From an uncultured Candidatus Bathyarchaeia archaeon (GTDB lineage Archaea; Thermoproteota; Bathyarchaeia; Bathyarchaeales; Bathyarchaeaceae): a stretch of 64,000 nucleotides of DNA. The translations under genes were made by a program, and so were the position numbers. The notes under the pieces were generated by a model. It had not been told where the DNA came from, did not search any database, and was given only the letters and a program-made list of their open reading frames with translations. The stretch spans positions 239,682 through 303,681 of the forward strand of contig CAZZLD010000001.1 in assembly GCA_964655075.1 (NCBI GenBank), written 5' to 3'. Positions 5,280 through 36,649 of the stretch are shown one piece after another. Positions within the stretch are counted from its first letter, which is position 1. Each line of letters begins with the position of its first letter.

Positions 5280-5438
5280 ATGTTGATGAAGCTCGTAACA
5301 GTTTTGCTTCCTGAAGCTTATCTTGAAGGACTCGACGAACTCGTGAGAGCCAGCATGTACCCGAGCCGAAGCGCAGCCATCAGAGCGTCAGTCAGAGACC
5401 TACTGAAACGAGAACTCTGGGCTAGAAGAGAAGAATAA
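5280..5438 (+). CDS. Ribbon-helix-helix (CopG/NikR-like) small DNA-binding protein
   Basis: 52-aa ORF, below the track cutoff: MLMKLVTVLLPEAYLEGLDELVRASMYPSRSAAIRASVRDLLKRELWARREE. It shows the beta-strand plus two-helix RHH pattern. Confidence 0.55.
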   Translation: MLMKLVTVLLPEAYLEGLDELVRASMYPSRSAAIRASVRDLLKRELWARREE

Positions 5439-5448
5439 GCTATAATTG

Positions 5449-6222
5449 TCATTTCGTGCTCTGCTTGGCAGCGTCCCTAACAAATTTTGCAGCTTCAACA
5501 GGCTTCTCAGACGAAGTTATGCTCCTGCCGACAATAAGATAACGCGCCCCAGCGTCAACAGCCGCTGTAACCTCTCCGCCTTGAGCGCCGATGCCTGGCG
5601 AGTAAATGGGAACCCGATCTCCTAAGATGTTGTGAACTTGCCTTATTTTCTCAGGGTAAGTAGCGCCCACCACCGCACCATCAGCACCCCAAGACAAAGC
5701 CCGCTCAGCGAAAACAACGAACTGAGGAACTAGCTTGCCGGTTTCGGGGTCCCGCACCATCTGACCGTAGCCTTCTTCGGCGCCCTTGTGACTCATGTAA
5801 ACCAGCAGAATGACGCCGCGGTTCATTTTCTCGGCAACCTCAAACACCGGCTGCATGCCCTCAGCCCATCCTACGAAAGGATTAGCGATCAAAGCGTCAA
5901 AACCAGCTGTATAATAGTATTCGGCGATCACGCGGTTTGTGTGTCCCACATCGTTAATTTTGCAGTCCATAATAGCAAGGAGCCCAAGATCGTGGATACA
6001 GTTCACAAGTTTCTGCACGCCGTCAAACAAACCTAGCGGAAGAACCAGCTGCCGGTTTATCTTCACCGCACAAAGATACGGATGCACCCTCTCCAGCAGA
6101 TCGAGACTCTTAGACATGAGGCTTCGAGGATTTTCAGGAGAAGGGTCTAGAGCTAGGACTATGTTTGAACCCGCCTTTTCCGCAGAACGCTTCATTTTCT
6201 GTTTGAAGGACAAAGTTAGCAC
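5449..6222 (-). CDS. pyrF: Orotidine-5'-phosphate decarboxylase family protein
   Basis: LALD...VKINRQL...DCKINDVGHTN...IVGRSITSSEKP resembles the OMPdecase DxKxxD and C-terminal GR motifs. At 257 aa it is longer than typical archaeal PyrF. Confidence 0.6.
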   Translation of the reverse strand: MLTLSFKQKMKRSAEKAGSNIVLALDPSPENPRSLMSKSLDLLERVHPYLCAVKINRQLVLPLGLFDGVQKLVNCIHDLGLLAIMDCKINDVGHTNRVIAEYYYTAGFDALIANPFVGWAEGMQPVFEVAEKMNRGVILLVYMSHKGAEEGYGQMVRDPETGKLVPQFVVFAERALSWGADGAVVGATYPEKIRQVHNILGDRVPIYSPGIGAQGGEVTAAVDAGARYLIVGRSITSSEKPVEAAKFVRDAAKQSTK

Positions 6223-20968: not shown

Positions 20969-21862
20969 TTGAAGGTTGAGGTTGAATGCGGGGCTTGTTT
21001 GTTCCACCGCGGATGGATGGAAATCCAGAAGGCGACAGATGATCCTCTCCTTCGCTTCAAGGCGCTTTCCGCTTTGCTCAGTCTCTTAGCTGAAGGGTTT
21101 AATCCAGAAGCGGTTCCAGCCTACCTCGGCACGAAGAGGGACAGACTAATCAGAGAGATCACCGGCAACCATGACCCTTATGCTGAAAAGAAGAGAATCA
21201 GCAATCAGAAAGCCTTAGAAGTTCTTCCTCTGGCAGAAAACTTGGTTTCGCATGGAACATCTGCAAAGACGCGTTTCAGAAGGGCTTGTTTAAGCGCCAT
21301 GGTTGGAAACATCATGGAATTTGACATGCTAGGCTACAGTTTCAAGTTTGAAGACATAGAAAAACTGATTGCGCAGGCCGAGCAGGACTTAGCCATCGAC
21401 GACATCCCAGAAATCTTCAGTAGAGCCAAAGAAGCAAAGAATATTCTGTATCTGACAGATAACGCCGGAGAAGTAGCCTTCGACACTCTGCTGGTTCAAG
21501 AGCTAGAAAAACTTGGAGCCCAAGTCGCAGTGGCAGTTAAGGAAAAGCCCATATTCAACGATGCAACTATGGCTGACGCAAAAACCGTGGGGATGCACGA
21601 AGTTGCAAGCGACGTCATAACGCTTGGAACAGACACCATCGGACTGATTCTCGACGAGGTTTCTGACGAGTTCTTAAGCTATTATAACTCAGCTGATTTA
21701 GTTGTAGCGAAGGGCATGGGTTACGCCGAAACCCTGACGGAGCTCGAGTTGACTACGCCACATGCTTTGATGCTGCGAACGAAATGTCAGCCAGTGGCTA
21801 ATTTATTTGGAGTGAGCAGAAACAGGAATGTTGCCAAATTGATGCTTCAGCCAAGGAAGTGA
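20969..21862 (+). CDS. DUF89 / ARMT1-like damage-control phosphatase family protein
   Basis: N-terminal C-x2-C, DPY..KK, LYLTDNAGEVAFDTLL, and AKGMGYAETL near the C-terminus. Confidence 0.75.
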   Translation: MKVEVECGACLFHRGWMEIQKATDDPLLRFKALSALLSLLAEGFNPEAVPAYLGTKRDRLIREITGNHDPYAEKKRISNQKALEVLPLAENLVSHGTSAKTRFRRACLSAMVGNIMEFDMLGYSFKFEDIEKLIAQAEQDLAIDDIPEIFSRAKEAKNILYLTDNAGEVAFDTLLVQELEKLGAQVAVAVKEKPIFNDATMADAKTVGMHEVASDVITLGTDTIGLILDEVSDEFLSYYNSADLVVAKGMGYAETLTELELTTPHALMLRTKCQPVANLFGVSRNRNVAKLMLQPRK

Positions 21863-24049: not shown

Positions 24050-26551
24050 ATGGAGACTAACATGCAGGCTGTTGTCATGGCGGGCGGGGCGGGAACTAGG
24101 CTTCGTCCCTTAACGACCAATCGTCCTAAACCGATGGTTCCCATAGTGAACCGACCAATTCTAGAGCACGTAATTGATCTTCTAAAGAAACACAAAGTTA
24201 AGGACATCACCGCCACTCTTCACTACTTCTCAGGCGTCATCACAAACCAGTTTCAAGACGGAACGAATTTCGGCGTAAAAATGAACTATTTAGTGGAGGA
24301 AAAACCTCTCGGAACGGCTGGAGGCGTAAAGAAAGCGGAGCAATACCTTAACGAAACCTTCATCGTGATGAGCGGCGACGTGCTGACGGACATTGACCTC
24401 TCTGAGGCGATCAAGTTTCACCGAAATAAAGGGGCTGTTGCCACAATCGTGTTGACGAGAGTTCCGAACCCTGTTGAGTACGGCGTTGTTATCGTCAACG
24501 AAGATGGCGGGATTAAGCGGTTTCTCGAGAAGCCCGGCTGGGGAGAAGTTTTCAGCGACACCATTAACAGTGGGATCTACATTTTAGAACCGGAAGTCCT
24601 CAAGTATGTGAAAACCGAAACCGAGTTTGATTTCAGCAAAAACCTGTTCCCGCTACTTCTGGAAAATAAGGAGCCGATGTTCGGATACATCGCCGACGGA
24701 TACTGGTGCGACATCGGAAACTCCATTCAATACCTTCAGGCAAACCAAGATGTTCTACAGGGCATCGTAAAGGTGAACATCCCAGGAACCGCGGACGACG
24801 ATGTGTGGGTTGGTGAGAACACGGAAATTGAGGAAGGCGTTGAAATTAGGCCGCCAGTTCTTATCGGAAAGAACTGCCGAGTTCGAAAAGGAGCCATAAT
24901 AGGAGACTTCACCTCACTTGGAGACGGCGTGATAGTCGATGGAGAAGCCGCTGTGAAACGCTCCGCTGTCTGGAACAACACGTTCATTGGACCCAGAGCC
25001 TATCTTGCCAGATGCGTGGTCTGCGAAAAATGTAACGTTCACGAATCAGCTGCTCTCCTCGAAGGGGCGGTGGTGGGAGACGAATGCGTGATTAGGCGTG
25101 GCGCCACGGTTAAGTCAGGGATACGAATTTGGCCGGGAAAGATGATTGAAGCAGGCGCGGTTGTCCACATGGATTTGCGGTGGGGGATGAGGTGGATGTC
25201 GAATCTCTTCGGCACCAACGGCATAACCGGCCTAGCAAACATTGAAATCATCCCTGAGTTCGCCTCAAAACTCGGTGTGGCTTTCGGCTCTTTTCTTGGA
25301 AGAGGCGCAAAGGTGGTGGTCGGCCGCGACACTCACAGGGCTTCAAGAGTGATAAAGAGGGCTTTGATAGCGGGTTTAACCTCAGCAGGCGTTACGGTTT
25401 ATAACTTGAGGATTTGCCCTGCGCCGGTTACGAGATATATGGTTCGCTGTTTTGGTGCTGACGCAGGCGTCGAGGTTAGGGTACATGAAATCGATCCTAG
25501 GTCCGTGAATATCCAATTCTTTGACTCAAACGGAATGGAACTGGACCGATCATCAGAAAAAAGGATAGAAGGAATCTTCTTTAAGGAAGAATTTCGGAGG
25601 GTGCTCACCGACGAGGTTGGAGACATTGTTTACCCTGCTAGAATATTCGACCTTTACCGAGAGGACATCTTGAAATTCTTAGACTTGGGGAACATGCGGA
25701 AAGCCAGTTTAAACGTGGTCATTGACTGCGCTAACGGCGCTGGATCCCTCGTAGCGCCAACTATATTCGGCGAACTCGGATGTCAAGTTACTACGCTTAA
25801 TGCCAGACTGGACGAATTCATTGGACCCAGAACCTTTGAACAAACCCCGCCTTCCATTTCCAACTTGGCTAGAGTGGTGAAAGCCTTGGATGCTGACTTA
25901 GGAATCGCTTTAGATGGAGATGCTGACCGAGTTATATTCATTGACGAAAAAGGAACCGTTATTTCCGGTGACAATTCGCTTGCCATGATTTCTCAGGAAG
26001 TAGTTAAGGAAAGAGGCGGTGGCAAAGTTGTTGTTCCGATAAGTACCTCTCGCATGATAAACCAAGTCATTGAGCCCCTTGGTGGAGAAGTGATTCGGTG
26101 TAGATTAGGAGCGAGACCGCTTCTTGACGCTGTAACTACTCATCAGGCAGCTTTCGGAGGGGAGGAGAGCGGAAGCTTTGTTCTTCCCGATTTTCAGAAG
26201 GGATACGACGGGATAGTTGCCGCGGCGAAGACAACCGAGATCTTAGCGAGGAATAATGTTAAATTGTCCAGCCTTCACATCGGTTTGCCGAACTTCTACA
26301 TGGCTAAACAATCTGTTCCTTGTCCTTGGGAATACCGCGGCAAGATCATGCGGAGCATTATAGAGGAAGTTCGAGACCGCCAGATTGACACTATTGACGG
26401 CATCAAAGTTTTCTACGATAGCAACTGGATTCTTATGCATCCGAGCTCTGAAGAACCAGTCATCGACCTTTACGCTGAAGCGCCGAGTAAGAAAGCTGCA
26501 GACCGCCTTATCGAGGAGTACGATGAAAAAATTCGCGGTTTAATTACGTGA
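24050..26551 (+). CDS. Sugar-1-phosphate nucleotidylyltransferase + left-handed beta-helix + phosphogluco/phosphomannomutase-like domain fusion
   Basis: MAGGAGTRLRPLT...PLGTAGG (NTP transferase), then hexapeptide repeats, then a PGM/PMM-like region with LDGDADRVIF and GGEESGSF. RVHEIDP replaces the expected T-A-S-H-N-P phosphoserine loop. Confidence 0.8.
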   Translation: METNMQAVVMAGGAGTRLRPLTTNRPKPMVPIVNRPILEHVIDLLKKHKVKDITATLHYFSGVITNQFQDGTNFGVKMNYLVEEKPLGTAGGVKKAEQYLNETFIVMSGDVLTDIDLSEAIKFHRNKGAVATIVLTRVPNPVEYGVVIVNEDGGIKRFLEKPGWGEVFSDTINSGIYILEPEVLKYVKTETEFDFSKNLFPLLLENKEPMFGYIADGYWCDIGNSIQYLQANQDVLQGIVKVNIPGTADDDVWVGENTEIEEGVEIRPPVLIGKNCRVRKGAIIGDFTSLGDGVIVDGEAAVKRSAVWNNTFIGPRAYLARCVVCEKCNVHESAALLEGAVVGDECVIRRGATVKSGIRIWPGKMIEAGAVVHMDLRWGMRWMSNLFGTNGITGLANIEIIPEFASKLGVAFGSFLGRGAKVVVGRDTHRASRVIKRALIAGLTSAGVTVYNLRICPAPVTRYMVRCFGADAGVEVRVHEIDPRSVNIQFFDSNGMELDRSSEKRIEGIFFKEEFRRVLTDEVGDIVYPARIFDLYREDILKFLDLGNMRKASLNVVIDCANGAGSLVAPTIFGELGCQVTTLNARLDEFIGPRTFEQTPPSISNLARVVKALDADLGIALDGDADRVIFIDEKGTVISGDNSLAMISQEVVKERGGGKVVVPISTSRMINQVIEPLGGEVIRCRLGARPLLDAVTTHQAAFGGEESGSFVLPDFQKGYDGIVAAAKTTEILARNNVKLSSLHIGLPNFYMAKQSVPCPWEYRGKIMRSIIEEVRDRQIDTIDGIKVFYDSNWILMHPSSEEPVIDLYAEAPSKKAADRLIEEYDEKIRGLIT

Positions 26552-26632: not shown

Positions 26633-28174
26633 ATGACAGATTTGGTTTTCGCCTTTGAGGTTCATCAGCCGTTTAGGATAAAGAAGACTTACTTTTGGCA
26701 GCGCGAGATGTTTCAGCGGGTTCGAAAGGACGAGTTGTTTGACTATTATTTTGACAGGGATAAGGACCTAGAAATTTTTGAGAGGGTAAGCCGGAAATGT
26801 TACTTGCCGACCAATCGCCTGCTTCTCAACCTAATAGACAAATTCAAACATGAAAAGAGAAAGGTGAAGGTTGCTTTCAGTATTTCCGGCGTGTTTCTTG
26901 AGCAGTGTGAAAGATTTAACAAGGATGTTTTGGAATCCTTCAAACAGCTGGCTGAAACAGGCTGCGTGGAATTCCTCGAACAAACCTATTATCACTCGTT
27001 AAGCGGGCTGTACCCCGTCAGAGACGAATTCGAAGAACAGGTGAAAATGCACAGGCAAATTATTTGGGACCTTCTGCACTTTAGACCAGCGGTTTTTGAG
27101 AACACGGAACTTCTATACAATAATGCTATTGCAAAAGTTGTGGAAAACATGGGATACACCGGAATATACATGGAGGGCGTTGAAAGAGTCCTGAAGGATA
27201 GGCTGCCGAACCATGTTTACACCGCGAAAGGCTGCAAAAACCTTAGGGTTCTCCTGCGTAACTACAAGCTCACAGACGACATAGGATTCAGATTCTCAGC
27301 CAAGTGGTGGGACGGATGGCCCTTAACAGCGGGCAAGTACGCTTCTTGGCTGGATGTTACACCCGGAAACGTAATCAGCATTTTTCCGGATTACGAAACT
27401 TTTGGCGAACATCACTGGCCTGAAACGGGAATCCACGATTTCTTATCTCAGTTGCTGGTTGAAATTCTCGTTCACAAGAATTTGGACATGGTGACGCCTT
27501 CTGAGGCGATAAAGAGACACAGTCCAGTGGGGGAGGTTGATGTTCCTGAACTCAGCGCGGTTTCGTGGGCAGATCAAGAAAGAGACACAAGCTGTTGGTT
27601 GGGAAACACCATGCAGTGGGCGTACTACACGACGATGAGGGACATGGAACAACTCGTCAAAGAATCTGGAGACCCAGACTTCATTAGAAACTGGAGATAC
27701 TTCCAGATCAGCGACCACATGTATTACATGTTCACTGCGGGTGGAGCTCCAGGCGAAGTCCACTCGTACTTCAGTCCCTACGGAAACCCAATCGACGCCT
27801 TCGTGACTTGCCAGAGCGCTTTAACGGATTTCGAAATGAGATTACGGTTATTCACCGTCGCCACGAAGGAACCTTTCAAGTTCTACTCAGGCGTCGGAGA
27901 GAAAAAATACATTGGCGTTAGCGCATTAAGCCTCGAGGGCTTTATTGACGCGGTTTTAAAGGTGGACACTCAGACATTAGAGTTTCACAACGGTAGAGGC
28001 GACTTCGAAAGCTGGGCAAAATTCAGCCTAAGCAACAAGGAGCTAGCGGACGAGTTTCAAAAAATCAGCAAATCTGAACTTGAGGGAGAAGAACTCAGAG
28101 CAGCGATTGCCAAGACTGCTAAGAAACACTTTGTTGAATTACACAAGAAAGCTCAAGACCTCGGATACTACTAG
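26633..28174 (+). CDS. Glycoside hydrolase family 57 alpha-glucan-active enzyme (alpha-amylase-like)
   Basis: FEVHQPFRI N-terminus, ...DYETFGEHHW..., overall GH57 layout plus a C-terminal helical domain. Confidence 0.8.
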   Translation: MTDLVFAFEVHQPFRIKKTYFWQREMFQRVRKDELFDYYFDRDKDLEIFERVSRKCYLPTNRLLLNLIDKFKHEKRKVKVAFSISGVFLEQCERFNKDVLESFKQLAETGCVEFLEQTYYHSLSGLYPVRDEFEEQVKMHRQIIWDLLHFRPAVFENTELLYNNAIAKVVENMGYTGIYMEGVERVLKDRLPNHVYTAKGCKNLRVLLRNYKLTDDIGFRFSAKWWDGWPLTAGKYASWLDVTPGNVISIFPDYETFGEHHWPETGIHDFLSQLLVEILVHKNLDMVTPSEAIKRHSPVGEVDVPELSAVSWADQERDTSCWLGNTMQWAYYTTMRDMEQLVKESGDPDFIRNWRYFQISDHMYYMFTAGGAPGEVHSYFSPYGNPIDAFVTCQSALTDFEMRLRLFTVATKEPFKFYSGVGEKKYIGVSALSLEGFIDAVLKVDTQTLEFHNGRGDFESWAKFSLSNKELADEFQKISKSELEGEELRAAIAKTAKKHFVELHKKAQDLGYY

Positions 28175-28181
28175 GTTAGAT

Positions 28182-29678
28182 CTAAGTGAACACTGAGCAA
28201 GACCTGACTATTCCTGTTTTTGACAGATAATACTTCAGTTTACCAACTGCATCTTGATATTCGATAACAAATCCGTTTTCAATCAGCTTCTTCAGTAGAG
28301 CTAAAATCCTTTTTCTGGAAGCGCCACACAGTTTCGCTATCTCCCTGAGGGTCTTAGATGAATCCTCTGACATGATCCCCAACGCATACAGGACCAAGAG
28401 TAAACCGTGTTCCGTTGAAAGTTGGTTACGCAAGAACATGTTAGATTTTAATCTGGGAACAGCGGAGATCACGAGAGGCTCCTGCGGTTCTTGGGGCAAG
28501 ACCTTCGCGTAAGTTTCAGCGGTTTTCTCCGCGAGGAAATCCCAGTCGTTACGGCTTATGATCACTTCGTGAGCGTTTCTAGCCAGTTTGCTCGCATATT
28601 TAGGATTCATTAGAATTTTTAGGATTCCCCAAGACAGCGAATCCGAGTTATCAGGATAAACCGTCACTCCAGTTTCGTCGTGCTTCACGATTTCTGCTAG
28701 TCCGCCTACGTCGGAAACCACCACTGGGAGCCTAGCAGCCATGGCTTCTAATGCGACGATGCCGAAGGGCTCATAGAGGGAAGGGAAGACCGCCACGTCG
28801 CTTATTTTGTACAGTAACCGCAACGTTTCATCATCAACGAACCCCGCGAATAGAACTTTGTCTGAGACGCCGAGTTCGTAGGCTTCCCTCTGCAGAGACT
28901 CTTTCATGCCTCCCTCGCCTACGATTATGAGCTTTACATTTGGCATTTTGCTCAGAACGTTGGGCATGGCGCCGATGAGAACGTGGACGCCTTTCTCGTG
29001 AACCAGCCGCCCTACGTATAGGATGAGCTTTTCGCCGTTTGGAGCATACTTCTTCTTAGCGCTTTTAACGTTAGTTTTAATGCTGAACTTCAGGGCGTCA
29101 ACCCCATTGTGGATGATGTCCAACTTTGACATTGGAACACCGAAAGTCTGGGAAACCTGCTCAGCCATAAATCGGCTGCAGCAAATCAGCCTATCGCTTT
29201 GATGGACAAGTTGGGACTCCACGTTGTGAATGGTTCTCTGATAGCCGTTGTGAATGCCGTTTCTTCTGCCGACTTCTGTTGAATGAATAGTTGAAACTAG
29301 AGGTTTCCCATACCCGTTCTTCAGTTCCAGAGCGGCGCGGGCGACCAGCCAATCATGGGCATGAAACAAATCGAACGGCTCTTCTTCGAGTGCAATCACG
29401 CCAGTCGCGCGTTTAGCCATGTCGATGTTCATAGAGAAAACCCAGGACAGAAAGTCAAACGCCTGAATTTGATAGGAGTCAAATCTGTGAACGTGAACTC
29501 CCTCGACAACCTCGTACGGTAACGCGTCAGGAAAGCCGCAGGTTACAACGTGAACATCCATGCCCCCTCGAACAAGCGCGCATGAAAGGTCGTACACGTG
29601 GGGCGATATGCCGCCTATGATTCTCGGCGGGAACTCCCACGTAAGCATAAGGACTTTCAACGCGCCCATCGACATCAC
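28182..29678 (-). CDS. GT4-type alpha-glucan/glycogen synthase-like glycosyltransferase with a C-terminal winged-helix domain
   Basis: LTWEFPPRIIGGISPHVYDL...HAHDW...EPFGIVALEAMAARLPVVVSDVGGLAEIV (GT-B, E-x7-E region). It carries an extra ~95 aa ending ...TLREIAKLCGASRKRILALLKKLIENGFVIEYQDAVGKLKYYLSKTGIVRSCSVFT. Confidence 0.8.
   Translation of the reverse strand: MMSMGALKVLMLTWEFPPRIIGGISPHVYDLSCALVRGGMDVHVVTCGFPDALPYEVVEGVHVHRFDSYQIQAFDFLSWVFSMNIDMAKRATGVIALEEEPFDLFHAHDWLVARAALELKNGYGKPLVSTIHSTEVGRRNGIHNGYQRTIHNVESQLVHQSDRLICCSRFMAEQVSQTFGVPMSKLDIIHNGVDALKFSIKTNVKSAKKKYAPNGEKLILYVGRLVHEKGVHVLIGAMPNVLSKMPNVKLIIVGEGGMKESLQREAYELGVSDKVLFAGFVDDETLRLLYKISDVAVFPSLYEPFGIVALEAMAARLPVVVSDVGGLAEIVKHDETGVTVYPDNSDSLSWGILKILMNPKYASKLARNAHEVIISRNDWDFLAEKTAETYAKVLPQEPQEPLVISAVPRLKSNMFLRNQLSTEHGLLLVLYALGIMSEDSSKTLREIAKLCGASRKRILALLKKLIENGFVIEYQDAVGKLKYYLSKTGIVRSCSVFT
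28687..28776. repeat. 90-nt tract identical (inverted) to 32920-33009
   Basis: By direct comparison, the reverse complement of 28687-28776 equals 32920-33009 at every base. It encodes YEPFGIVALEAMAARLPVVVSDVGGLAEIV in both GT4 paralogs. Confidence 0.9.
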
Positions 29679-29680
29679 AC

Positions 29681-30007
29681 GTGAACCCCAAACTTATTTA
29701 CAGACTTTTTAAATATTGGTCTTATGGTATTAATAAGCAAAGGGAAACGAAGTTGACAGAAGAGAACATTCCTCCCGCAGAAAAGATATTGCTTATAATG
29801 CATAATTTATGTGTTATCCGCCCCGAAGCCGCTAAAACCACTAATGAAATAGCCCAGGTCCTACAGAAGGCTGTGGATTTCGTCTTAAACGCCCTGAATA
29901 AGCATGAAGCGGACGGATACGTGAAAAGCTACACTGACGAAAGCGGTTCCAAGCGCTTTTACTTAACAGGACAGGGAATAATTAAAGTCTGTTCAATCTT
30001 CACTTAG
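29681..30007 (+). CDS. Stand-alone winged-helix protein, paralog of the GT4 C-terminal domain (start uncertain)
   Basis: ...TTNEIAQVLQKAVDFVLNALNKHEADGYVKSYTDESGSKRFYLTGQGIIKVCSIFT aligns without gaps to the last 73 aa of the 28182..29678 product. The GTG at 29681 abuts the divergent gene start, so a downstream start (e.g. a TTG near 29753 or an internal Met) is more plausible. Confidence 0.5.
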   Translation: MNPKLIYRLFKYWSYGINKQRETKLTEENIPPAEKILLIMHNLCVIRPEAAKTTNEIAQVLQKAVDFVLNALNKHEADGYVKSYTDESGSKRFYLTGQGIIKVCSIFT

Positions 30008-30018
30008 TACAGTTAAAA

Positions 30019-31299
30019 TTAGTTAAACAACCGCTCGATTTCCTTTGCTTTCTGTATTGCCTTTTCACAGCAGAAACTGCATTTACTCAGCCACTCTTCA
30101 ATGCCCCAATAGAAATAGTCGCTCGACTCAGCGGTCAGCAGCCACTTCCAAGCTTCTCTAAGGCTTTGTTTAACCTTCGGAGAATCAAGATTACTTCGAT
30201 TAATCCTATCCCCGAGGTTTCTGAGGTACTCGTTTGTCCGCGCGATTTGTTCCCAACGTTGTTTCCTCGGCGCATCGCCAATCCACTTTAAGAACCGCCC
30301 ATCGTCTGACATCCCCTGAACGTTCCAGCTTCCGCTTTCAACATTCACAGTGTCTTCAGGCGGGTGGGCTTTCAGGTAGTCTTGAACCGTAGTTAGTTTG
30401 ACGAATCCAAAGCGTGGATCAGAGGCGATCTTCTCCAGAAGCGGCATGAAGAACCAGCCCCAAAAGCCCGCTTTGTCCCCAGAGTGGCGGAACCAGCCGT
30501 TCTCGCCGTCAGTGGCAACAACCAACAGCAAGTCCTCACCACCGGTTTTCAGCATGCCCTTTAGCTTTGACTGAACTTCGTTCATCAGCCATTGAGGGTC
30601 GTAGCCGCTCTGCTGAGCTATGCTTATGCCCCTGTCACGTACAACCACGGTTATTCGACGTCCATCCCGCTCAACGAAATGTGGATAATACAGAAGTTTG
30701 CGCCAGTCCTTGTCTTTATTCGCATTCGTCACGTGTGGCTCATCCACGATAGTCCACTGGAATCCCATGTCAGCGAGTAAAGGAACCAAATCTGAGCTGA
30801 ATGCCACTTCCGGAGGCCAGAAACCCGCAGGTTTACCTCCGAACGTCTCCTCGTAGATTTTCAAGTGCATCTCGATCTGTTTCTTGCGGTCTGTTTCAGG
30901 GATCAGCGGCAAAATTGGGTGGAAGTAGCCGCAACCAGTGAACTCAACCTTCCCAGCGTCTTTAACTCTGAGGTATTTGCTCCAAATTCCCTCAAGCCTG
31001 GGGTCAAAGTCTGCAGCCTCAAGATCGTTTATCTGCTCGATTAAAGTGCCTGTGAAGTTTATGGTGACTCTAGCTCCGTCGTATTTCGCAATAGCCTCAG
31101 GGGGAAACGTGTAGGGGTGCATGGTCTGAACGAACACTTCTCTGGCGATTTCTGAATCTAGGATTTTGCCTGTGAAACTGTAGATTGGCTGGTGCATGTG
31201 CAAGATTATGGCGATGTTCAGGGTTGATTTAACCAAAAGTTTCGCCTCCAAATTGCCTGTTACAAGTTTATGGATCACTTCTACAGTGTGAATGATCAT
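30019..31299 (-). CDS. Glycoside hydrolase family 57 enzyme
   Basis: LHMHQPIY, FTGCGYFHPILPLI, ATDGENGWF. The GH57 catalytic-region patterns are present. Confidence 0.8.
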   Translation of the reverse strand: MIIHTVEVIHKLVTGNLEAKLLVKSTLNIAIILHMHQPIYSFTGKILDSEIAREVFVQTMHPYTFPPEAIAKYDGARVTINFTGTLIEQINDLEAADFDPRLEGIWSKYLRVKDAGKVEFTGCGYFHPILPLIPETDRKKQIEMHLKIYEETFGGKPAGFWPPEVAFSSDLVPLLADMGFQWTIVDEPHVTNANKDKDWRKLLYYPHFVERDGRRITVVVRDRGISIAQQSGYDPQWLMNEVQSKLKGMLKTGGEDLLLVVATDGENGWFRHSGDKAGFWGWFFMPLLEKIASDPRFGFVKLTTVQDYLKAHPPEDTVNVESGSWNVQGMSDDGRFLKWIGDAPRKQRWEQIARTNEYLRNLGDRINRSNLDSPKVKQSLREAWKWLLTAESSDYFYWGIEEWLSKCSFCCEKAIQKAKEIERLFN

Positions 31300-31386
31300 C
31301 GGTCTTCATCAAAAATCCTTTATAAAACTATCCTTAAAGAACGAAAAAGCCCAAAGGAATAAATAAGCTTATTTCTGATCAAAACG

Positions 31387-32031
31387 TTGGAGAGTGCCAC
31401 TACGCGGCTCATAATGCTTACATGGGAGTATCCGCCTAAACGTTTAGGAAACATTTCTGATCATGTCCAAGCCCTCTCCCATGAACTGGTTAAGCGAGGA
31501 CACGAAGTTGAGGTTTTGACGGAGGACGACACTAAAACCGGTGTTGAAGACATCTCCGGAGTTCACGTTCACCGGGTGGCTAATCAGGTGAAAACGCATC
31601 CGAAGGCAAGCATCCTCACCTTCGCGACGACAGCGTCCGTGTCCATAGAGCGGGAAGCAGCAGACATTATTTACTATTACAGACACGTAGGAAAGAAAAT
31701 CGATTTCATCCACGCCCACGAGTGGCTCACGGTTCCAGTGGCCATTTCGCTTAAACACGCATTCAAGCTACCCTTTGTCTTAACTCTGCATTCCGTTGAA
31801 GGACATCGGTGCCACGACGCCTTTGGACCAATAAGTATAGCAATAAGCGAAGTTGAGAGGATGGGAATCAACGAGGCTGCTAGGGTTATAGCCAACACGG
31901 AATGGATGAAAAACGAGATTCTCCGATATTATGGCGGAGAACACGGAAACAAAGTTGATGTGGCTTGGCCTATTGGAGGAGACTGGGTTCAAGGGATCAT
32001 CAAGGTGTACAAAAAAGTTCTGAGTGCGTGA
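31387..32031 (+). CDS. GT4 N-terminal-lobe-only paralog (no C-terminal nucleotide-sugar-binding lobe)
   Basis: LTWEYPPKRLGNISDHVQALSHELVKRGHEVEVL...IHAHEWL...LTLHS parallels the N-lobes of the neighbouring GT4s. The ORF stops after 214 aa. TTG start. Confidence 0.55.
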   Translation: MESATTRLIMLTWEYPPKRLGNISDHVQALSHELVKRGHEVEVLTEDDTKTGVEDISGVHVHRVANQVKTHPKASILTFATTASVSIEREAADIIYYYRHVGKKIDFIHAHEWLTVPVAISLKHAFKLPFVLTLHSVEGHRCHDAFGPISIAISEVERMGINEAARVIANTEWMKNEILRYYGGEHGNKVDVAWPIGGDWVQGIIKVYKKVLSA

Positions 32032-32041
32032 GGCTCAAATC

Positions 32042-33235
32042 ATGCGTGTGCTTCAGCTAACATGGGAGTTCCCGCCGAGAATCATAGGCGGCATATCCCC
32101 CCACGTGTACGATTTATCTCGAGCACTGGTGAGGAAAAAGGCGGAAGTTAACGTAATAACCTGTAACTTCCCCGGCGCTAGAGAATACGAGAACATAGAC
32201 GGTGTGCATGTCCACAGGTTTGAGACTTACGCAGCTGGAGACTCGTTTTTAGGATGGATTCTGCGCATGCAGAAGAACATGGAGAACAAAGCCAGTGACG
32301 TGGTTAACTCTGATGGAGGCGTAGACGTTATTCACGCCCATGACTGGGTTGCAGGCGTGGCAGGCATCGCGTTGAAGCATTTGCTGAGGAAACCCCTGAT
32401 AGCAACCATACACAGCACTGAATACGGGAGAAGAGCAGGATTACATGATGATTTCCAGAGGTGCATCCATGAAATCGAAGGCTGGTTATGCACGGAATCA
32501 TGGCGGGTGATCACATGTTCACACTACATGGAAGAGCATGTGTCATGGTGCTTCGGTGTGCCTAGAGATAAAATCGATGTCGCACCCAACGGTGTAGATG
32601 TAACGAAATGGCAGTTTCCCTTCGACTACTGGGAGACCCGCAACCGCTTTGCTTCAGGAAACGAAAAAATCATTCTTTTCGTGGGAAGAATGGTCATCGA
32701 GAAGGGCTTAGACCTCATCATCAGAGCCCTACCTACAGTGCTTAACCACGGTATAAACGCAAAAATTGTGGCAGTAGGAGAAGGCCCAGAGAAAGGAAAT
32801 TATCAAAGGCTAGCTTGGAACATCGGAGTGGGCCCAAAAGTTCACTTTACGGGACACATCGACAACGGAACCCTGCGAAGACTCTACCGCGTTGCGGATG
32901 TAGCTATTTTTCCGAGCCGCTATGAGCCCTTCGGCATCGTCGCATTAGAAGCCATGGCTGCTAGGCTCCCAGTGGTGGTTTCCGACGTAGGCGGACTAGC
33001 AGAAATCGTAGATCACGGCGGAACGGGATTGAAGGTTCCTTCGAATAATCCTGGCGCGATTGCGTATGCTGTTGAGCGGATTATCAGAGATGAAGCATTT
33101 AGGAAATGGATTGTTGAGAACGCGTACAAGAAGTGCCTCTGGAACTACAATTGGGATCGAATTGCGGAGCAGACCCTTGGCGTGTACAGCAAAGTTTTTT
33201 GCGAATGGGACGCGGGGGACTGGAAGCCAAAATAA
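32042..33235 (+). CDS. GT4-type alpha-glucan/glycogen synthase-like glycosyltransferase
   Basis: MRVLQLTWEFPPRIIGGISPHVYDLSRALVR...EPFGIVALEAMAARLPVVVSDVGGLAEIV. The ATG at 32042 is preferred to the GTG at 32024. Confidence 0.85.
   Translation: MRVLQLTWEFPPRIIGGISPHVYDLSRALVRKKAEVNVITCNFPGAREYENIDGVHVHRFETYAAGDSFLGWILRMQKNMENKASDVVNSDGGVDVIHAHDWVAGVAGIALKHLLRKPLIATIHSTEYGRRAGLHDDFQRCIHEIEGWLCTESWRVITCSHYMEEHVSWCFGVPRDKIDVAPNGVDVTKWQFPFDYWETRNRFASGNEKIILFVGRMVIEKGLDLIIRALPTVLNHGINAKIVAVGEGPEKGNYQRLAWNIGVGPKVHFTGHIDNGTLRRLYRVADVAIFPSRYEPFGIVALEAMAARLPVVVSDVGGLAEIVDHGGTGLKVPSNNPGAIAYAVERIIRDEAFRKWIVENAYKKCLWNYNWDRIAEQTLGVYSKVFCEWDAGDWKPK
32920..33009. repeat. 90-nt tract identical (inverted) to 28687-28776
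   Basis: See the partner entry. A second tract, 32063-32112, matches the reverse complement of 29590-29639 with one mismatch. Confidence 0.9.
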
Positions 33236-33247
33236 GCCGACGCGAGA

Positions 33248-34300
33248 TCAAAGACTTTTTTCTTCTGCTCGGAAGGTTTCCTTCAAACTTTCAGCAGCGT
33301 CCTCTGGAGACATGGTGTTTATGAACATGCCGTTGCTCTTCTCGAATCCCGCCCATATCGCTAATCTAGGGTAGACCTCGATGTGCCAATGATAATAGTC
33401 CCGCGCAGCGGCTTCGTCCTTCGGCGCTATGTGAAAACCGAAGTTATACGGCGGATCGTTCAACAGCGAACTTAACCCGCCGAGGGAAACTTTCAAACAT
33501 GCAGCCAAAGCGCGGGTTTCATTCTTGCTTATTTCCAGCAGAGTTGACTGGTGTTCTTTGGGGAAGACCCAGAATTCGAAGGGATGGACGCTCGCCCAAG
33601 GCGCGAAAACCCCGAAGCTTTCGTTTTCCCAAATAAATCGTGGACCAGCTTTTTCCTTTTCTAGGATATTACAGAAAACGCATTCTTTGTTTTTACTCCA
33701 GAATTCTTTGCTCGCCGTCAGTTCCTCGATAGGAATTCGTGGAACTCTCGGCGTCGCGATTATTTGGCTGTGGGCGTGAGAAAGGGATGCTCCTGCCTCC
33801 CGCTGATGGTTTCTGAAGATTGAAACATACTTTACGTAGGGTTTGGCGGAAAGTTCGCTGAGGCGGTCACGGTACGCGTTGATCACGTGGACGAGTTGGG
33901 AAACCCGCGCTACACTGGGATGCTCATCATGCCTAGGGGACTCCGCGAGGATTTCATGGTGCCCAAAAGCCAAGGTGGGTATATGCCGCGCTCCCGCTTC
34001 TGCTTCTTCCGCGTTTTTAGGGGGTGTAAATGCAGGATATAAGTTCGGAAAGCATCTTATCAGCCAGTTTTTGTGGCGATAACCGTTTTTATCCTTGTCC
34101 TTTCTTATTTCGCCGTTTGATGGAAGATAAACGAGGATGGCTGGCGGGGTCTCAATCTCGTGGTCTGGACAGAAGGGACAGGCCCCCGTTGCTTCTTCCT
34201 TGATTTTTTTCACAAAGTCGGTGGGACGACGCTTACGCTCTGTTGCAATGACTACCCAACGATTTAGCAAGTAGTCCTTTCGCAATTCGTTAGCGGGCAT
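33248..34300 (-). CDS. galT: Galactose-1-phosphate uridylyltransferase family (HIT-type hexose-1-P nucleotidyltransferase)
   Basis: Zinc motif CPFCP and the active-site HIT variant SLSHAHSQIIA (H-x-H-x-Q). Confidence 0.85.
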   Translation of the reverse strand: MPANELRKDYLLNRWVVIATERKRRPTDFVKKIKEEATGACPFCPDHEIETPPAILVYLPSNGEIRKDKDKNGYRHKNWLIRCFPNLYPAFTPPKNAEEAEAGARHIPTLAFGHHEILAESPRHDEHPSVARVSQLVHVINAYRDRLSELSAKPYVKYVSIFRNHQREAGASLSHAHSQIIATPRVPRIPIEELTASKEFWSKNKECVFCNILEKEKAGPRFIWENESFGVFAPWASVHPFEFWVFPKEHQSTLLEISKNETRALAACLKVSLGGLSSLLNDPPYNFGFHIAPKDEAAARDYYHWHIEVYPRLAIWAGFEKSNGMFINTMSPEDAAESLKETFRAEEKSL

Positions 34301-34338: not shown

Positions 34339-35598
34339 TTAGGATTTTCTGGTCGCCAACAGCTCCTCGTAGATTTCAGCGGTCTTTCTAGCGATTACGT
34401 CCCAAGTGAATTCTTTGAGGACCCTCTTCCGCGCGTTTTGACCAAGCTGTAGCGTTCTTTCATGATTCTGCAGTGCGTTAATGATTCCCCAAGCAATGTC
34501 CTCTTCTTTATCTGGGTTAACGTGGAAGCCACATTGGTCTTCACCTTGTGCAACGACGGATTCACGCATGCCGCTGACGCCTGAGGCTCCTACAACCACG
34601 GGTTTCTCCATGCTCATAGCCTCTAACGCAACGATGCCGAAGGGTTCGTAGCGGCTCGGAAAAACAGCCACGTCGCATGCCGCGTAATGGGCGATTCTGT
34701 CCTCTTCTGGGATGAATTCGAAACAGAACTTTACTTTGTCTTGTAGATTTAAGTCCTGAACGAGTTTTTGTAGGGCGTGTTGCATATCACCGAGACCCAC
34801 GACAACGAGTTTGGCGTTTGGGATTTTCTTTAGAACTTGGGGCATAGCTAAGATTAGTTTATCCACGCCCTTAATCCAGACAAGTCTCCCTACGAAGAGA
34901 ATCATTAAATCGTCGTCTTTAATCCCGTATCTTCGCCTCAACTCGCCGATCTTTTTGGCGCTCACCTGGTTCATGGAGTATTTCTGGGGATCAACGCCGT
35001 TATAAGAAACCCGAATTTTTTCAGCTGGGAAGCCCAACCCAACTAATTCGTCTTTCATCGCGTAAGAAACAGTGACAACACGATCTGCCATCTGTCCACC
35101 TCGAAGTTCGAGGTTATTTACCACTTCGGAGCCGTTGCCTAAGGTTCGCCCTTTTTCCGTGGAGTGAACGTGAAAAACTAGGGGCATGCCTAGTTCCCTT
35201 TTGACGGCGATGCCTCCCATTGTTGAGAGCCAGTCGTGAGCGAGGACCACGTCGTATTCAAATCCTTCTTTCCGAATCAGTTCGTTAACCAGCTTTGAGG
35301 CGCTAAGATAATTGTACACGAGAAGTTTAGAGAATAAGTGAATTCCTCTACCCCACTTTTTAATATCCTCCGCGATAACGTCAGGCAGGGAATCTGAGAC
35401 ATCGATATGAAGCGGTCGGTGAATTTCAATGCCTCGCCAGAGTTCCCGTGTAGGAAGTTTACCTGCGTCGTCGTTCATGGTGAACACAGACACGTCGTGA
35501 CCTAGTAGAACAAACTTTCGCGTAATTTCAGCAGCATAAGTTCCTAATCCGCCTACGATTTTGGGAGGATACTCGTAAACCAACACCGCCATCTTCAT
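34339..35598 (-). CDS. GT4/GT5-type glycogen synthase-like glycosyltransferase
   Basis: YEYPPKIVGGLGTYAAEI...AHDWL...EPFGIVALEAMSMEKPVVV. Confidence 0.8.
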   Translation of the reverse strand: MKMAVLVYEYPPKIVGGLGTYAAEITRKFVLLGHDVSVFTMNDDAGKLPTRELWRGIEIHRPLHIDVSDSLPDVIAEDIKKWGRGIHLFSKLLVYNYLSASKLVNELIRKEGFEYDVVLAHDWLSTMGGIAVKRELGMPLVFHVHSTEKGRTLGNGSEVVNNLELRGGQMADRVVTVSYAMKDELVGLGFPAEKIRVSYNGVDPQKYSMNQVSAKKIGELRRRYGIKDDDLMILFVGRLVWIKGVDKLILAMPQVLKKIPNAKLVVVGLGDMQHALQKLVQDLNLQDKVKFCFEFIPEEDRIAHYAACDVAVFPSRYEPFGIVALEAMSMEKPVVVGASGVSGMRESVVAQGEDQCGFHVNPDKEEDIAWGIINALQNHERTLQLGQNARKRVLKEFTWDVIARKTAEIYEELLATRKS

Positions 35599-35830
35599 TC
35601 ATCTTCACTCCGAAGAACTTTCCACTTGAAACCCCTTTTAGTCGTTTGGCTCTATTTAGAGGGTATCCCATATAAATTTATTGAAAGACCTCTTCTTCAG
35701 CGGTCTTAACTCTGATGTGATCGAGTGGAGAATAACCTAGCAACCCAAGTTTTTCGGCAGCTTTCCTCACTTTGGATATGCGCACTAAGTTTATATGATC
35801 AGCTTCAGAGTATAATGTTCCCAATAGGTG

Positions 35831-36649
35831 ATGATAGATTTGTCTTTTAGACCCGGAAAGGTCCTTCGTCTAAGCGAGTTTATTAATCCGGAGGATGGAA
35901 AATCGGTCATTTTGGAGGCAGATCAAGGATTAATGCTGGGACCGGTAACTGGCCTTGTGGAATTAGATGAAACAGTTAAAAACTCGAAGAGTGAAGTTGA
36001 CGCTATTGTTTTAAGCCCAGGACAGGCTGGAAGGCTGATCCAGCATTTTCGGGGCAGAAAGGCTCCTGCACTGATAGTGAGAGCGGACTGGGCGAACGTG
36101 TTCCGAGACGAGACCTTTGTCTTGCCCGCCGAAAAAGTGAGGCACGTCACCGTTGTGTCAGCATCAGAAGCCCTTGCTTTTGGCGCCTCGGGCATAATGG
36201 CTTTTTTCATTGTTGGTTATGAAGACGATGAAGACGAGGCTCAGAACATGAATACGCTCGCGTCGCTGGCCAGAGAAAGCGATCGTTTAGGTGTGCCGTT
36301 GCTGGTGGAAGCCCTACCTTTTGGTGCGAGAGTGACTAAAACAAATTATACTGATTGTGTCGATTTAGCGATGAGAATGTCCATTGAGGCTGGAGCGGAC
36401 GCCGTAGCTGTTCCCTACACGGGAGACATCGGCTCTTTTCGGAAAATTGTGGATGCGGCGAAGGTGCCAGTGTTCACTCTTGATGTGGGAAATACGACTA
36501 AAGGTCCCGTTGAGATCGCCACAGAAGCCCTAAAGGCAGGGGCTTCAGGAATAGTAACTGGGACAAAAATTTTCCAAACAGCTGAGCCGTTCAAGATTTT
36601 AAAAACCATAAATGGCATAGTTCACGAGAGGACGAAAAAAAGTTCATAG
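35831..36649 (+). CDS. DhnA/DeoC-family class I aldolase homolog lacking the Schiff-base lysine
   Basis: The family pattern is present (EADQGLMLG...VEALPFG...). At the position where its neighbour has GADAIKTSYTG and the FbaB homolog has GADIIKTKF, it reads GADAVAVPYTG, with an Ala codon at 36407-36409. Confidence 0.7.
   Translation: MIDLSFRPGKVLRLSEFINPEDGKSVILEADQGLMLGPVTGLVELDETVKNSKSEVDAIVLSPGQAGRLIQHFRGRKAPALIVRADWANVFRDETFVLPAEKVRHVTVVSASEALAFGASGIMAFFIVGYEDDEDEAQNMNTLASLARESDRLGVPLLVEALPFGARVTKTNYTDCVDLAMRMSIEAGADAVAVPYTGDIGSFRKIVDAAKVPVFTLDVGNTTKGPVEIATEALKAGASGIVTGTKIFQTAEPFKILKTINGIVHERTKKSS

Follow-up and report, generated by a model that had tools for sequence, protein, structure and literature searches.

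A GT4 glycosyltransferase with a C-terminal winged-helix domain and its divergently encoded free paralogue in a bathyarchaeial alpha-glucan cluster

The GT4-wHTH fusion gene and its neighbours

The 64,000-nt stretch of DNA from an uncultured Candidatus Bathyarchaeia archaeon that was analysed here (the window) carries an alpha-glucan island, in which a gene on the minus strand (28182..29678, stop codon at 28182-28184) encodes a GT4 enzyme fused to a C-terminal winged-helix (wHTH) domain. The open reading frame list opens this gene at GTG 29678, giving 498 aa; by comparison with the database homologue P0001 of 497 aa, the start is probably ATG 29675. Full-length homologues of the fusion, 482-497 aa long, were found in ~95 clusters. 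The protein matched the Pfam models Glycos_transf_1 (E 3e-53) and Glyco_transf_4 (E 9e-33), and the glycogen-synthase-like motifs RIIGG, HAHDW, GRLVHEKG and E-x7-E, the last one reading EPFGIVALE, were read from the sequence of its catalytic part (residues 1-395; 28494..29678, minus strand). Across an alignment of 91 homologues RIIGG, HAHDW, R-x4-K and E-x7-E were invariant, and the nearest solved structures were those of the GT4 enzymes Tll1590, GlgM and BshA. From these matches and motifs, the fusion protein is predicted to be a retaining GT4 glycosyltransferase with a GT-B fold. Membership of the GlgM family (TIGR02149, 'glgA_Coryne') or of GT5 GlgA (TIGR02095) was rejected, as the protein scored 173.6 bits against a curated cut-off of 302.4 and 95.5 bits against 328, respectively; TIGR02149 was the best match for all four GT4 genes of the island, at 174-185 bits against the cut-off of 302.

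The AF2 model of the whole fusion protein (pLDDT 89) comprised a GT-B fold at residues 1-393, mostly with pLDDT >90 over the catalytic part, followed by disorder at residues 398-416 (pLDDT <50) and then the wHTH domain. The disordered stretch falls in a Pro-rich flexible linker of about residues 396-416 (28431..28493, minus strand) that is poorly conserved in the alignment consensus. The winged-helix domain (residues 417-498; 28185..28430, minus strand) was assigned from its match to HTH_24, its AF2 elements and its charge, the tail being basic with a net charge of +6 and a pI of 9.6. Helices were modelled in the tail at residues 413-420, 423-432, 444-451, 455-467 and 487-497, and strands at 471-475 and 481-485.

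Next to the fusion gene lies a gene for a GH57 glycoside hydrolase with a C-terminal DUF5752 (26633..28174, plus strand; identified by Pfam and synteny), which adjoins the fusion gene in most relatives. Beyond the small wHTH gene described below, a second GH57 gene (30019..31299, minus strand) is followed by a half glycosyltransferase (half-GT) of 214 aa with the GT4 N-terminal domain only (31387..32031, plus strand; Pfam) and by a tail-less GT4 of 403 aa (32024..33235, plus strand), whose gene overlaps the half-GT gene by 8 nt. In relatives the half-GT/GT4 pair directly follows the small gene, with the half-GT directly 3′ of it in 16 loci, whereas in the window the second GH57 gene separates them. 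DUF5752 likewise occurs in the cluster both as an enzyme-fused and as a free copy. A wHTH-DUF5752 protein found in relatives of the island is a more conventional, putative candidate regulator; compared with the profile of the wHTH family, its N-terminus was not significant as a single sequence and reached 91-95% probability as a profile of 21 homologues, so that by profile comparison the likeness is at the superfamily level only. In the literature searched, no mention was found of DUF5752, nor of a wHTH linked to an archaeal glycogen synthase.

The free copy and the GT4-linked wHTH family

The free-standing copy is encoded on the plus strand at 29753..30007 as a protein of 84 aa with a TTG start, an assignment based on homologues, AF2, Foldseek and purifying selection. 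The sequence-only reading had placed this frame at 29681-30007; the corresponding 108-aa product was rejected, since it crosses the promoter and the homologues, which fall into 17 clusters mostly of 84 aa, begin with Met at the position of TTG 29753. Against the most distant of the close relatives, identity at the three codon positions was 0.89/0.89/0.60, which argues that the small gene is under purifying selection. The small gene is thereby confirmed as real, and its extent had to be corrected. The protein, near neutral with a net charge of +1, had no Pfam or NCBIfam match.

The gapless similarity between the tail and the small protein, which had been counted by eye at about one third identity, survived scored alignment: BLASTP gave 24/73 identical and 45/73 positive residues with no gaps (E 3e-15), and both proteins terminate at the aligned position. 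A hidden Markov model (HMM) was built from distant fused tails only, with the window clade excluded, and 380 shuffled sequences served as the control; small proteins scored 62-85 bits and the best shuffle 6.2 bits. The predicted wHTH-like fold was also recovered, both in the AF2 models of the two proteins and in the match of the tail to HTH_24 (25.9 bits, cut-off 21.9). The small protein was modelled with the same fold as the tail (pLDDT 91), and the pLDDT of the domain was 85-96 in the two models. The modelled topology of H1, strand, H2, turn, H3 and a beta-hairpin wing places the domain in the winged-helix superfamily. Foldseek returned a probability of 1.0 to MarR, TubR and AspA, with the top matches being MepR/MarR (E 1e-4, TM 0.75), TubR (TM 0.71-0.77 over the whole chain) and AspA; the sequence profile found TubR 6tey (E 1e-5, a full-length match) as well as MarR proteins (E 4e-5 to 3e-4). 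Two other Pfam models stayed below their cut-offs on the tail, TrmB at 17.5-18.7 bits against 25.6 and MarR_2 at 14-17 bits against 27. By these sequence comparisons, the small gene is a true paralogue of the fusion tail; both the statistics of the homology and the conservation of the gene refute chance similarity or a small frame that is no gene at all, an explanation that had nothing in its favour after testing and is now extremely improbable. As had been noted, the remaining GT4 genes of the island (214, 403 and 419 aa) lack the domain, and the window holds just two family copies.

Both copies belong to one unnamed family of ~350 sequences that is largely confined to one class, the Bathyarchaeia. 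Neither Pfam nor NCBIfam has a model for this GT4-linked wHTH family; some relatives carry precomputed HTH_5 or HTH_27 matches, and annotation pipelines label its members as MarR-, IclR- or ArsR-type regulators. Family members share the C-terminal motif [L/C/M]-[ST]-x-[FY]-[ST]-COOH and end at exactly the same residue in 348/349 cases, the last residue being Ser, Thr or Cys in 347/348 and never Ala or Gly. In the window the motif takes the local forms CSVFT at the end of the fusion (28185..28199, minus strand) and CSIFT at the end of the small protein (29990..30004, plus strand). The terminal Cys-Ser-[VI]-Phe-Thr had been called invariant; the Cys proved invariant only locally, as this position is C59 / L29 / N2 / S1 among 91 fused tails and L155 / C127 / M25 family-wide. 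A catalytic, metal-binding or redox role of the Cys is unlikely, because Leu or Met stands in its place in over half of the family, at what is a hydrophobic helix position; proteasome docking through an HbYX-like C-terminus was set aside as unsupported. In every subfamily the most conserved segment is not the recognition helix but the C-terminal helix, G-I-x-K-V-hydrophobic-S-x-[FY]-[ST], and in the AF2 models the domain ends inside a packed helix or at its tip. Nearly all members, whatever their subfamily, have a basic residue just ahead of strand 3. The fused tails are basic, their net charge being +4.8 and their pI 9.8, and their wing, RD.LRRLRYYLT, is rich in Arg. Free copies range from neutral to slightly acidic, with mean net charges between -0.4 and +0.5; helix 3 of the B-type free copies contains an invariant Asp and an invariant Glu and has a net charge of -1.6.

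Gene arrangements and the divergent promoter region

At every sampled locus, the family member and a GT4 gene of that alpha-glucan cluster are either neighbours or a single fused gene, and among the loci sampled the family is linked solely to GT4 genes at identities down to ~25%. Three arrangements were found: the domain is fused to the C-terminus of the GT4, or has a gene of its own that abuts the stop codon of a GT4 lacking the tail, or is encoded by the leading gene of a wHTH / half-GT / GT4 operon. The fusion is present in ~100 clusters and in a second, very divergent clade. In the split form, seen in 80 metagenome loci and one MAG, the free wHTH gene lies directly 3′ of the tail-less GT4 with a spacing from an 11-nt overlap to a 5-nt gap. 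Adjacency was counted for the 38 free genes with enough flanking sequence: 21 lie directly after a GT4 gene (2 of them frameshifted), 16 directly before a half-GT and GT4 pair, and the sole exception is the small gene of the window. B-type free copies always open their operon and have a TATA-like box to themselves. Divergent pairing of a fusion with a free copy, the arrangement first described in the window, recurs in three clades, namely the window clade (L102-L104), L005 and L006/7, the GTs of the latter two being only 51-53% identical to that of the window; it is not universal, as no free copy lies near the fusion in L004 and L105/L106.

Fusion gene and small gene are separated by a divergent promoter region of 77 bp (29676..29752), which is ~90% identical in an alignment with four relatives (A7). 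Intergenic identity was 0.84-0.86 against 0.60-0.81 at third codon positions; judged from these values, the promoter is more conserved than synonymous sites. Its central AT-rich element, CTTTTTAAATATTGG (29705..29719), lies 39 nt from the GT start and is invariant in A7; it may be a shared TATA box or a regulator site. The 11-mer TTAAATATTGG is found equally far from the GT start in the intergenic region of L005, a relative with a 53% identical GT. In A7, ACACGTGA (29677..29684) abuts the GT start codon and overlaps the alternative GTG start, and in three relatives it takes the form of a perfect palindrome, TCACGTGA. A putative TATA-like box for the fusion gene, TAAATAAG (29693..29700, minus strand), is invariant in A7, and its AATAAG ends 18 nt before the fusion ATG, comparable to the AATAAATAAG box ~20 nt before the half-GT start. 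A putative counterpart for the small gene, TATTAATAAG (29728..29737, plus strand), has an AATAAG that ends 16 nt before the TTG. An operator search over 29660-29770 found no direct or inverted repeats of at least 8 nt and no clear palindromic operator, and TTAAATATTGG and CAAANTTATTTA were not enriched in the window and were absent from the other promoters of the island. A scan for sigma-70 promoters and terminators was uninformative, the models being bacterial and the host an archaeon.

Enzyme-coupled regulation and its alternatives

The MarR regulators (MepR 3eco/4lll, MarR and SlyA) share the wHTH topology with this family, including the Y-x-L-T-x-x-G end of the wing; however, the family domain has ~80 residues against ~140 and is without the N- and C-terminal helices from which MarR proteins build their dimer and ligand pocket. 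It is also tied to an enzyme, by fusion or by gene linkage, it ends in a strict C-terminal motif, and a basic charge is missing from its free copies. Membership of the MarR family proper was rejected because the domain, of 80-84 aa, has a single short helix at its N-terminus and a single helix at its C-terminus, and because MarR_2 scored below threshold. The centromere-binding proteins TubR (6tey, 4asn) and AspA (4rs8) are alike in size and in their layout of a wHTH plus a C-terminal helix, and the end-to-end profile alignment with C. botulinum TubR takes in Y-I-T-x-x-G-I-x-K-L-x-S, but in the window no TubZ/ParA partner gene or iteron array lies nearby, the surrounding genes belong to glucan metabolism and the charge is neutral. 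A partition system of this type was rejected on its glucan-enzyme neighbours and the lack of intergenic repeats. The TrmB sugar-sensing regulators likewise combine an archaeal wHTH, here a weak Pfam match, with alpha-glucan/maltodextrin metabolism, whereas the partner domain in this family is an enzyme; the sub-threshold score and the missing sugar-binding TrmB_C domain led us to reject TrmB membership. BirA and PutA are trigger enzymes of the fused type. Trigger enzymes unite a metabolic enzyme, by fusion or in a complex, with a wHTH-type regulator of the pathway it serves, and the fused or abutting wHTH found here may be a parallel; different are the GT-B glycosyltransferase, the C-terminal wHTH on a disordered tether and the free paralogue across a shared promoter. 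CysK-CymR is a two-protein trigger enzyme system, and partners of CysK dock via a strictly conserved C-terminal residue (PMC12895370). For archaea, uncharacterised GT4 genes nested among GH57/GH133 glycogen genes, of the same enzyme family and cluster type (GDE, GH57, GT4), have been flagged as needing clarification (PMC11046441); that review describes no wHTH partner or tail, the terms 'winged' and 'helix-turn-helix' having 0 occurrences in it.

The analysis suggests that enzyme and regulator work as one unit. An enzyme-coupled wHTH regulator with trigger-enzyme logic is the best reading, at somewhat less than even confidence. The domain would bind promoter DNA of the cluster as a dimer through its recognition helix and basic wing, and would be joined physically to the synthase, through the tether in the fusion and through binding where the two genes are split; how much regulator reaches the DNA would then depend on the enzyme's state or location. 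The neutral free paralogue may pair with the tail through the nearly identical C-terminal helix and modulate it, or alternatively may act on the same compact bidirectional promoter. Such a regulator is favoured by the solid paralogy, by the nearest structural matches, all DNA-binding proteins, by the profile matches to TubR and MarR proteins, by HTH_24, by the basic tails, the Arg-rich wing and the basic residue ahead of strand 3, and by the fusion and fission forms, the recurring divergent pairing and the conserved intergenic region; since the modelled linker is disordered, the wHTH domain may act independently. It is weakened by the neutral free copies and a C-terminal helix more conserved than the recognition helix, by the lack of an inverted-repeat operator and of the promoter motifs elsewhere in the island, by wHTH-DUF5752 already being a candidate regulator and by fusions with no free copy nearby. 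The circuit tying alpha-glucan synthesis to transcription that the sequence-only reading had put forward stands in part: its coupling of enzyme and regulator is strengthened by the free gene abutting a tail-less GT4 in split forms, and the neutral free copies oppose a simple transcription factor.

These same neutral copies would suit a wHTH that does not bind DNA and serves as a structural or regulatory subunit of the GT4 (or of the half-GT/GH57), assembling or gating an alpha-glucan synthesis complex, with the C-terminal helix and free carboxyl end as docking element and the free paralogue as the equivalent subunit for the half-GT/GT4 pair. Complex subunits typically show such a mix of fusions and translationally coupled adjacent genes, and the link to GT4 genes alone among the loci sampled, the conservation of the C-terminal helix and end residue, the parallel pattern of DUF5752 and the C-terminal docking of CysK partners (PMC12895370) all point the same way. 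Yet every close structural and sequence relative binds DNA, the basic, Arg-rich wing of the fused tails is left unaccounted for, and a fixed subunit has no need of a long disordered tether. To our knowledge, no GT-B enzyme uses a wHTH subunit. This explanation is a serious alternative, somewhat less probable than the coupled regulator. Less probable still is that these are ordinary small autoregulatory transcription factors inherited vertically with the cluster, the GT4 fusion being a neutral or co-expression accident that lends dimerisation and no sensing. The leading position and own TATA-like box of the B-type copy and the pipeline labels agree with this, and in a family mostly from Bathyarchaeia strict synteny could be orthology; however, the fusion has been kept in the diverged clusters and the second clade, the split wHTH genes are coupled to the GT4 stop codon and do not sit at arbitrary places in the operon, and the strict C-terminus and neutral charge are not accounted for.

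The C-terminus itself might be the functional element. As a protein acceptor or primer analogous to glycogenin, the domain would have its terminal Ser/Thr (or a conserved Tyr) glucosylated by the GT4 to seed or cap glucan, which would fit the hydroxyl- or thiol-bearing last residue, the aromatic penultimate residue, the strict termination point, the flexible tether and the tie to GT4 genes only. The domain has no other resemblance to glycogenin, AF2 packs its end into a helix, and bacterial and archaeal glycogen synthases are generally regarded as working without a primer protein; this is very improbable. By analogy with the CysE/CdiA tails in CysK, the conserved free C-terminus might instead enter the GT4 active-site cleft as a substrate-displaced competitive gate, or as a glucosyl acceptor, a broader proposal to which we also give little credence. 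If true, the enzyme would be an archaeal alpha-glucan synthase that is gated or primed by a protein, its glycogenin-like partner having a winged-helix scaffold.

Bathyarchaeia are abundant, uncultured sediment archaea, so the control of their carbon storage is approachable only through their genomes. A family of ~350 winged-helix modules of ~80 residues with no Pfam or NCBIfam model provides a testable handle on GT4 clusters and a marker for annotating the alpha-glucan cluster. If the module binds DNA, the fusion would be, as far as we know, the first glycosyltransferase trigger enzyme, with a paralogue antagonist built in and a 77-bp bidirectional promoter; if it does not, it would be an accessory subunit of GT-B enzymes of a new kind, recognisable by an unusually strict signature at its C-terminus. 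Either outcome would help to define alpha-glucan synthesis and its regulation in these archaea.

The glycosyltransferase tail and its free paralogue

The ORF list contained both genes as the sequence-only reading had given them, a GT4 gene at 28182-29678 on the minus strand (498 aa) and a small ORF at 29681-30007 on the plus strand. BLASTP reproduced the similarity proposed between them, as the last 106 residues of the GT aligned with the small ORF over 73 residues without gaps (24 identical, 45 positive, E 3e-15), and the alignment ran to the last residue of both, as the common end point had implied. Using an HMM built from distant fused tails only, with the window clade left out, 19 of 19 small proteins scored 62-85 bits, vs a best score of 6.2 bits among 380 shuffled copies. 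The GT tail and the small protein are the only two family copies in the 64-kb window, and the other GT4 genes of the island (214, 403 and 419 aa) lack the winged-helix (wHTH) domain, as had been noted. The start of the small gene was moved from 29681 to the TTG at 29753, yielding 84 aa, since most homologues are 84 aa long with a Met at that position; 29681-29752 was thus rejected as coding and is promoter DNA. The GT start is probably the ATG at 29675, judged from a database homologue of 497 aa.

Pfam assigned GT residues 21-371 to Glyco_transf_4 and Glycos_transf_1, and residues 433-471 to HTH_24, the latter above threshold with the isolated tail as the query. In the AF2 model based on 91 homologues (pLDDT 89), the GT-B fold extends to residue 393 and is followed by a disordered Pro-rich linker (398-416) and a compact tail domain, which comprises helices 413-420, 423-432, 444-451 and 455-467 (the recognition helix), a wing formed by the beta-hairpin 471-475 and 481-485, and a C-terminal helix (487-497). 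The same elements were found in the model of the small protein (pLDDT 91), and the earlier proposal of a wHTH fold was therefore upheld for both. Foldseek against the PDB retrieved MepR/MarR wHTH domains (E 1e-4, TM 0.75) and, for the whole chain, the small DNA-binding proteins TubR and AspA (TM 0.71-0.77). The family profile likewise matched MarR proteins and, from end to end, Clostridium botulinum TubR (E 1e-5); the small protein itself had no match in Pfam or NCBIfam. The enzyme motifs RIIGG, HAHDW, GRLVHEKG and E-x7-E are glycogen-synthase-like and invariant across the 91 homologues, and the nearest solved relatives are the GT4 enzymes Tll1590, GlgM, BshA and MshA. TIGR02149 ('glgA_Coryne') was the best match of the GT and its three paralogues with scores well under the cut-off, and therefore no exact reaction was assigned to these predicted GT4 enzymes.

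The terminal CS[VI]FT proved to be the local form of a family signature, and its Cys, taken as invariant before, is not. In 348 of 349 members the last residue falls at one and the same profile position; it is Ser in 267, Thr in 75, Cys in 5 and Ile in 1. Position -2 is Phe in 181 and Tyr in 156, -4 is Ser or Thr in 320, -5 is Leu in 155, Cys in 127 and Met in 25, and -10 is Gly in 342. The Cys occupies a hydrophobic position of the helix, where other members have Leu or Met, and therefore a catalytic, metal-binding or redox role is unlikely. The C-terminal helix consists of the segment G-I-x-K-V-hydrophobic-S-x-[FY]-[ST], and in all three subfamilies conservation peaks there, above the recognition helix and wing. 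The strict chain end could lie within a dimer interface, dock into a partner, or be modified.

About 95 clusters of 482-497 aa are full-length homologues of the fusion including the tail, and the named ones are Bathyarchaeia; as judged from these homologues, the fusion is not peculiar to the window genome. Searched exhaustively with the profile, a set of 1.8 billion representative proteins gave 236 matches, 51 of them below 1e-10, mostly free 70-92-aa proteins matched as far as the last residue, together with fused forms of 476-502 aa that include a second, very divergent clade. Named members came from Bathyarchaeia and from single MAGs labelled Asgardarchaeia and Thermoproteota, and were annotated as 'hypothetical' or as generic MarR-, IclR-, ArsR- or PadR-type regulators. 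A very divergent fused clade occupies a different gene context (L105 9001-15321 and L106 1224-7544), in the order GT4-wHTH, GH57 (662-674 aa) and two APH-fold kinase genes, possibly maltokinase-like, with no free wHTH close by.

Fused, split and leader forms in alpha-glucan clusters

The main new result of the analysis is the genomic context. In the sampled loci, three family arrangements recur, always within the same alpha-glucan cluster of a GH133-type debranching enzyme, two GH57, an NDP-sugar pyrophosphorylase-phosphomutase, several GT4 and a GalT-like gene; the synteny sample held about 100 loci, and an association only with GT4 means in every locus sampled. The fused form carries the wHTH on the GT4, as in the window. 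In the split form, seen in 80 metagenome loci and one MAG, a free wHTH gene lies directly 3' of a tail-less GT4 on the same strand, with junctions from an 11-nt overlap to a 5-nt gap (GT4 4830-5993 and wHTH 5983-6243 in L020; 4825-5985 and 5989-6252 in L037; 219-1400 and 1406-1666 in L101). This wHTH belongs to a distant subfamily (LCMLHNIGAT...GIRKVLSxYS), and its GT4 is 39-44% identical to the window GT core. In the leader form, a free wHTH gene opens an operon and is followed, with gaps of 3-28 nt, by a half-GT (the GT4 N-terminal domain only, ~200-219 aa) and a full GT4; it was found in the subfamily to which the window copy belongs and also in a third one, which is very distant (P0173, 70 aa). 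Among 38 free genes with enough flank, 21 follow a GT4 (2 frameshifted) and 16 precede a half-GT, the sole exception being the window, in which a GH57 gene (30019-31299) separates the small gene from the half-GT/GT4 pair. In a rough NJ tree of GT4 cores, fused enzymes and operon GT4s grouped together, with the split-form partners as their sister, and thus the fused and split forms concern related enzymes, as would be expected from gene fusion or fission. Tails scored closer to leader-type copies (70 bits) than to split-type ones (57 bits).

Leader-type copies carry invariant or near-invariant His-Asn (helix 1 end), Asp (helix 3 start) and His-Glu (helix 3 end) and two frequent Cys, at residues 17-20, 42, 51-52 and 80 of the small protein; fused tails lack all of these, which could form a ligand, metal or partner site. 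The window half-GT (31387-32031, plus strand, 214 aa) is a GT4 N-terminal Rossmann domain alone with degenerate motifs (KRLGNI for RIIGGI, HAHEW for HAHDW), and overlaps the full GT4 gene (32024-33235) by 8 nt; this pair is kept in all relatives, usually led by a small wHTH or wHTH-DUF5752 gene. DUF5752, a domain that no paper found names, shows the same enzyme-fused and free pattern as the GT4-linked wHTH: it forms the C-terminus (about aa 413-503) of the GH57 at 26633-28174, and relatives encode free 168-230-aa DUF5752 proteins with a canonical N-terminal wHTH (L005 5896-6402; L006 5945-6508; L018-L101), while no free copy was found in the window. This GH57 (513 aa) is 47-73% identical in all related clusters, although a sequence search (phmmer E <= 1e-3) gave no solved relative and NCBIfam has no model for it. 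The 833-aa product of 24050-26551 (plus strand) fuses an NDP-sugar pyrophosphorylase (NTP_transferase and hexapeptide-repeat region) to a phosphogluco/phosphomannomutase, and could make an activated sugar donor from a sugar 6-phosphate on one polypeptide. The most conserved pair of the cluster comprises the GalT-like/DUF4921 gene and the 419-aa GT4 (33248-34300 and 34339-35598, both minus strand), with 60-77% identity in nearly all loci, very distant ones included. ARMT1-like damage-control phosphatase and DeoC/LacD-type aldolase genes (20969-21862 and 35828-36649, both plus strand) flank the island, and also adjoin the cluster in L102 and L005.

The divergent pair and its promoter

The divergent pairing of the fusion with a leader-type copy recurs, in the window, three close relatives (L102-L104), and two relatives with a 51-53% identical GT (L005 and L006/7). 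In the window clade the small gene keeps to the fusion gene and is less tightly linked to the half-GT operon, with a GH57-like, PPIase or creatininase gene in between. Fusions without a free copy nearby (L004, L105/L106) and leader forms without a fusion nearby (L008-L016) also occur; the pairing is common without being obligatory.

Across four relatives the 77 bp between the two genes are ~90% identical, vs 60-81% for third codon positions in the genes on either side. Two inverted TATA-like boxes of the AATAAG type lie in this region, 16-18 nt ahead of the respective start codons; the half-GT and GH57 promoters, which appear to be leaderless, have the same spacing. An invariant block, CTTTTTAAATATTGG, lies between the boxes, and L005 has the core of this block as well, again 39 nt from the GT start. 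A CACGTG palindrome adjoins the GT start. All of these are candidate control sites with putative roles; no repeat-type operator was found in this region. The divergent GH57/half-GT promoter (31300-31386) has TATA-like boxes centred ~24-25 nt before each start codon, suggesting leaderless mRNAs, and a perfect 12-bp palindrome, AATAAGCTTATT, at 31362-31373.

A possible enzyme-coupled regulator or accessory subunit

Predicted DNA binding is favoured by the fold, the nearest relatives and the Pfam match, by the MarR-like wing (D..R/K...Y-L-T..G), where nearly every member has a basic residue ahead of strand 3, by the R/H, Q and K/R that tails and split-type copies conserve on a single face of helix 3, and by the strongly basic fused tails (net +4.8, pI 9.8, wing +2.5). 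Against it, free copies have a mean net charge of -0.4 to +0.5, helix 3 of leader-type copies is net negative with an invariant Asp and His-Glu missing from the tails, and conservation peaks at the C-terminal helix, outside the canonical wHTH DNA contacts (recognition helix H3 and wing). In the main rival, the domain would be an accessory subunit of the GT4 with no DNA binding. Translational coupling, the strict chain end, the neutrality of the free copies and the parallel with DUF5752, likewise both fused and free, argue for this rival, and we consider it unlikely, though a serious contender. That the family is an ordinary co-inherited transcription factor, its fusion incidental, is improbable, and a glycogenin-like protein acceptor is very improbable.

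Our best reading, held tentatively, is an enzyme-coupled wHTH regulator. The GT4 and the wHTH would act together physically, because they occur as fusions and abutting gene pairs and share a tether, and the output would be DNA binding at the cluster's promoters, because of the wHTH fold and the basic tail. The free neutral paralogue, with its C-terminal helix in common with the tail, might pair with the tail or act at the same compact promoter. Such an enzyme-coupled regulator matches the type of the fused trigger enzymes BirA and PutA. It also matches the two-protein case of CysK-CymR, where a wHTH regulator is stabilised on DNA by the enzyme; partners of CysK dock through a conserved C-terminal residue (PMC12895370).

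Some JGI entries label the fusion 'glycosyltransferase / predicted transcriptional regulator', and thus the domain pair had already been seen by annotation pipelines; no study of it was found in the literature. A recent review counts the GT4 genes in archaeal GH57/GH133 clusters among those still to be clarified, and makes no mention of a wHTH partner for them (PMC11046441). Taken singly, the GT4 enzyme, the wHTH and the idea of a trigger enzyme are all of known kinds. Their combination appears undescribed: a GT-B glycosyltransferase tethered to a wHTH, with a paralogue of the latter on the other side of a highly conserved bidirectional promoter, and a dedicated wHTH family that has no model in Pfam or NCBIfam, is locked to GT4 genes in each of its three architectures and bears a strict C-terminal signature.
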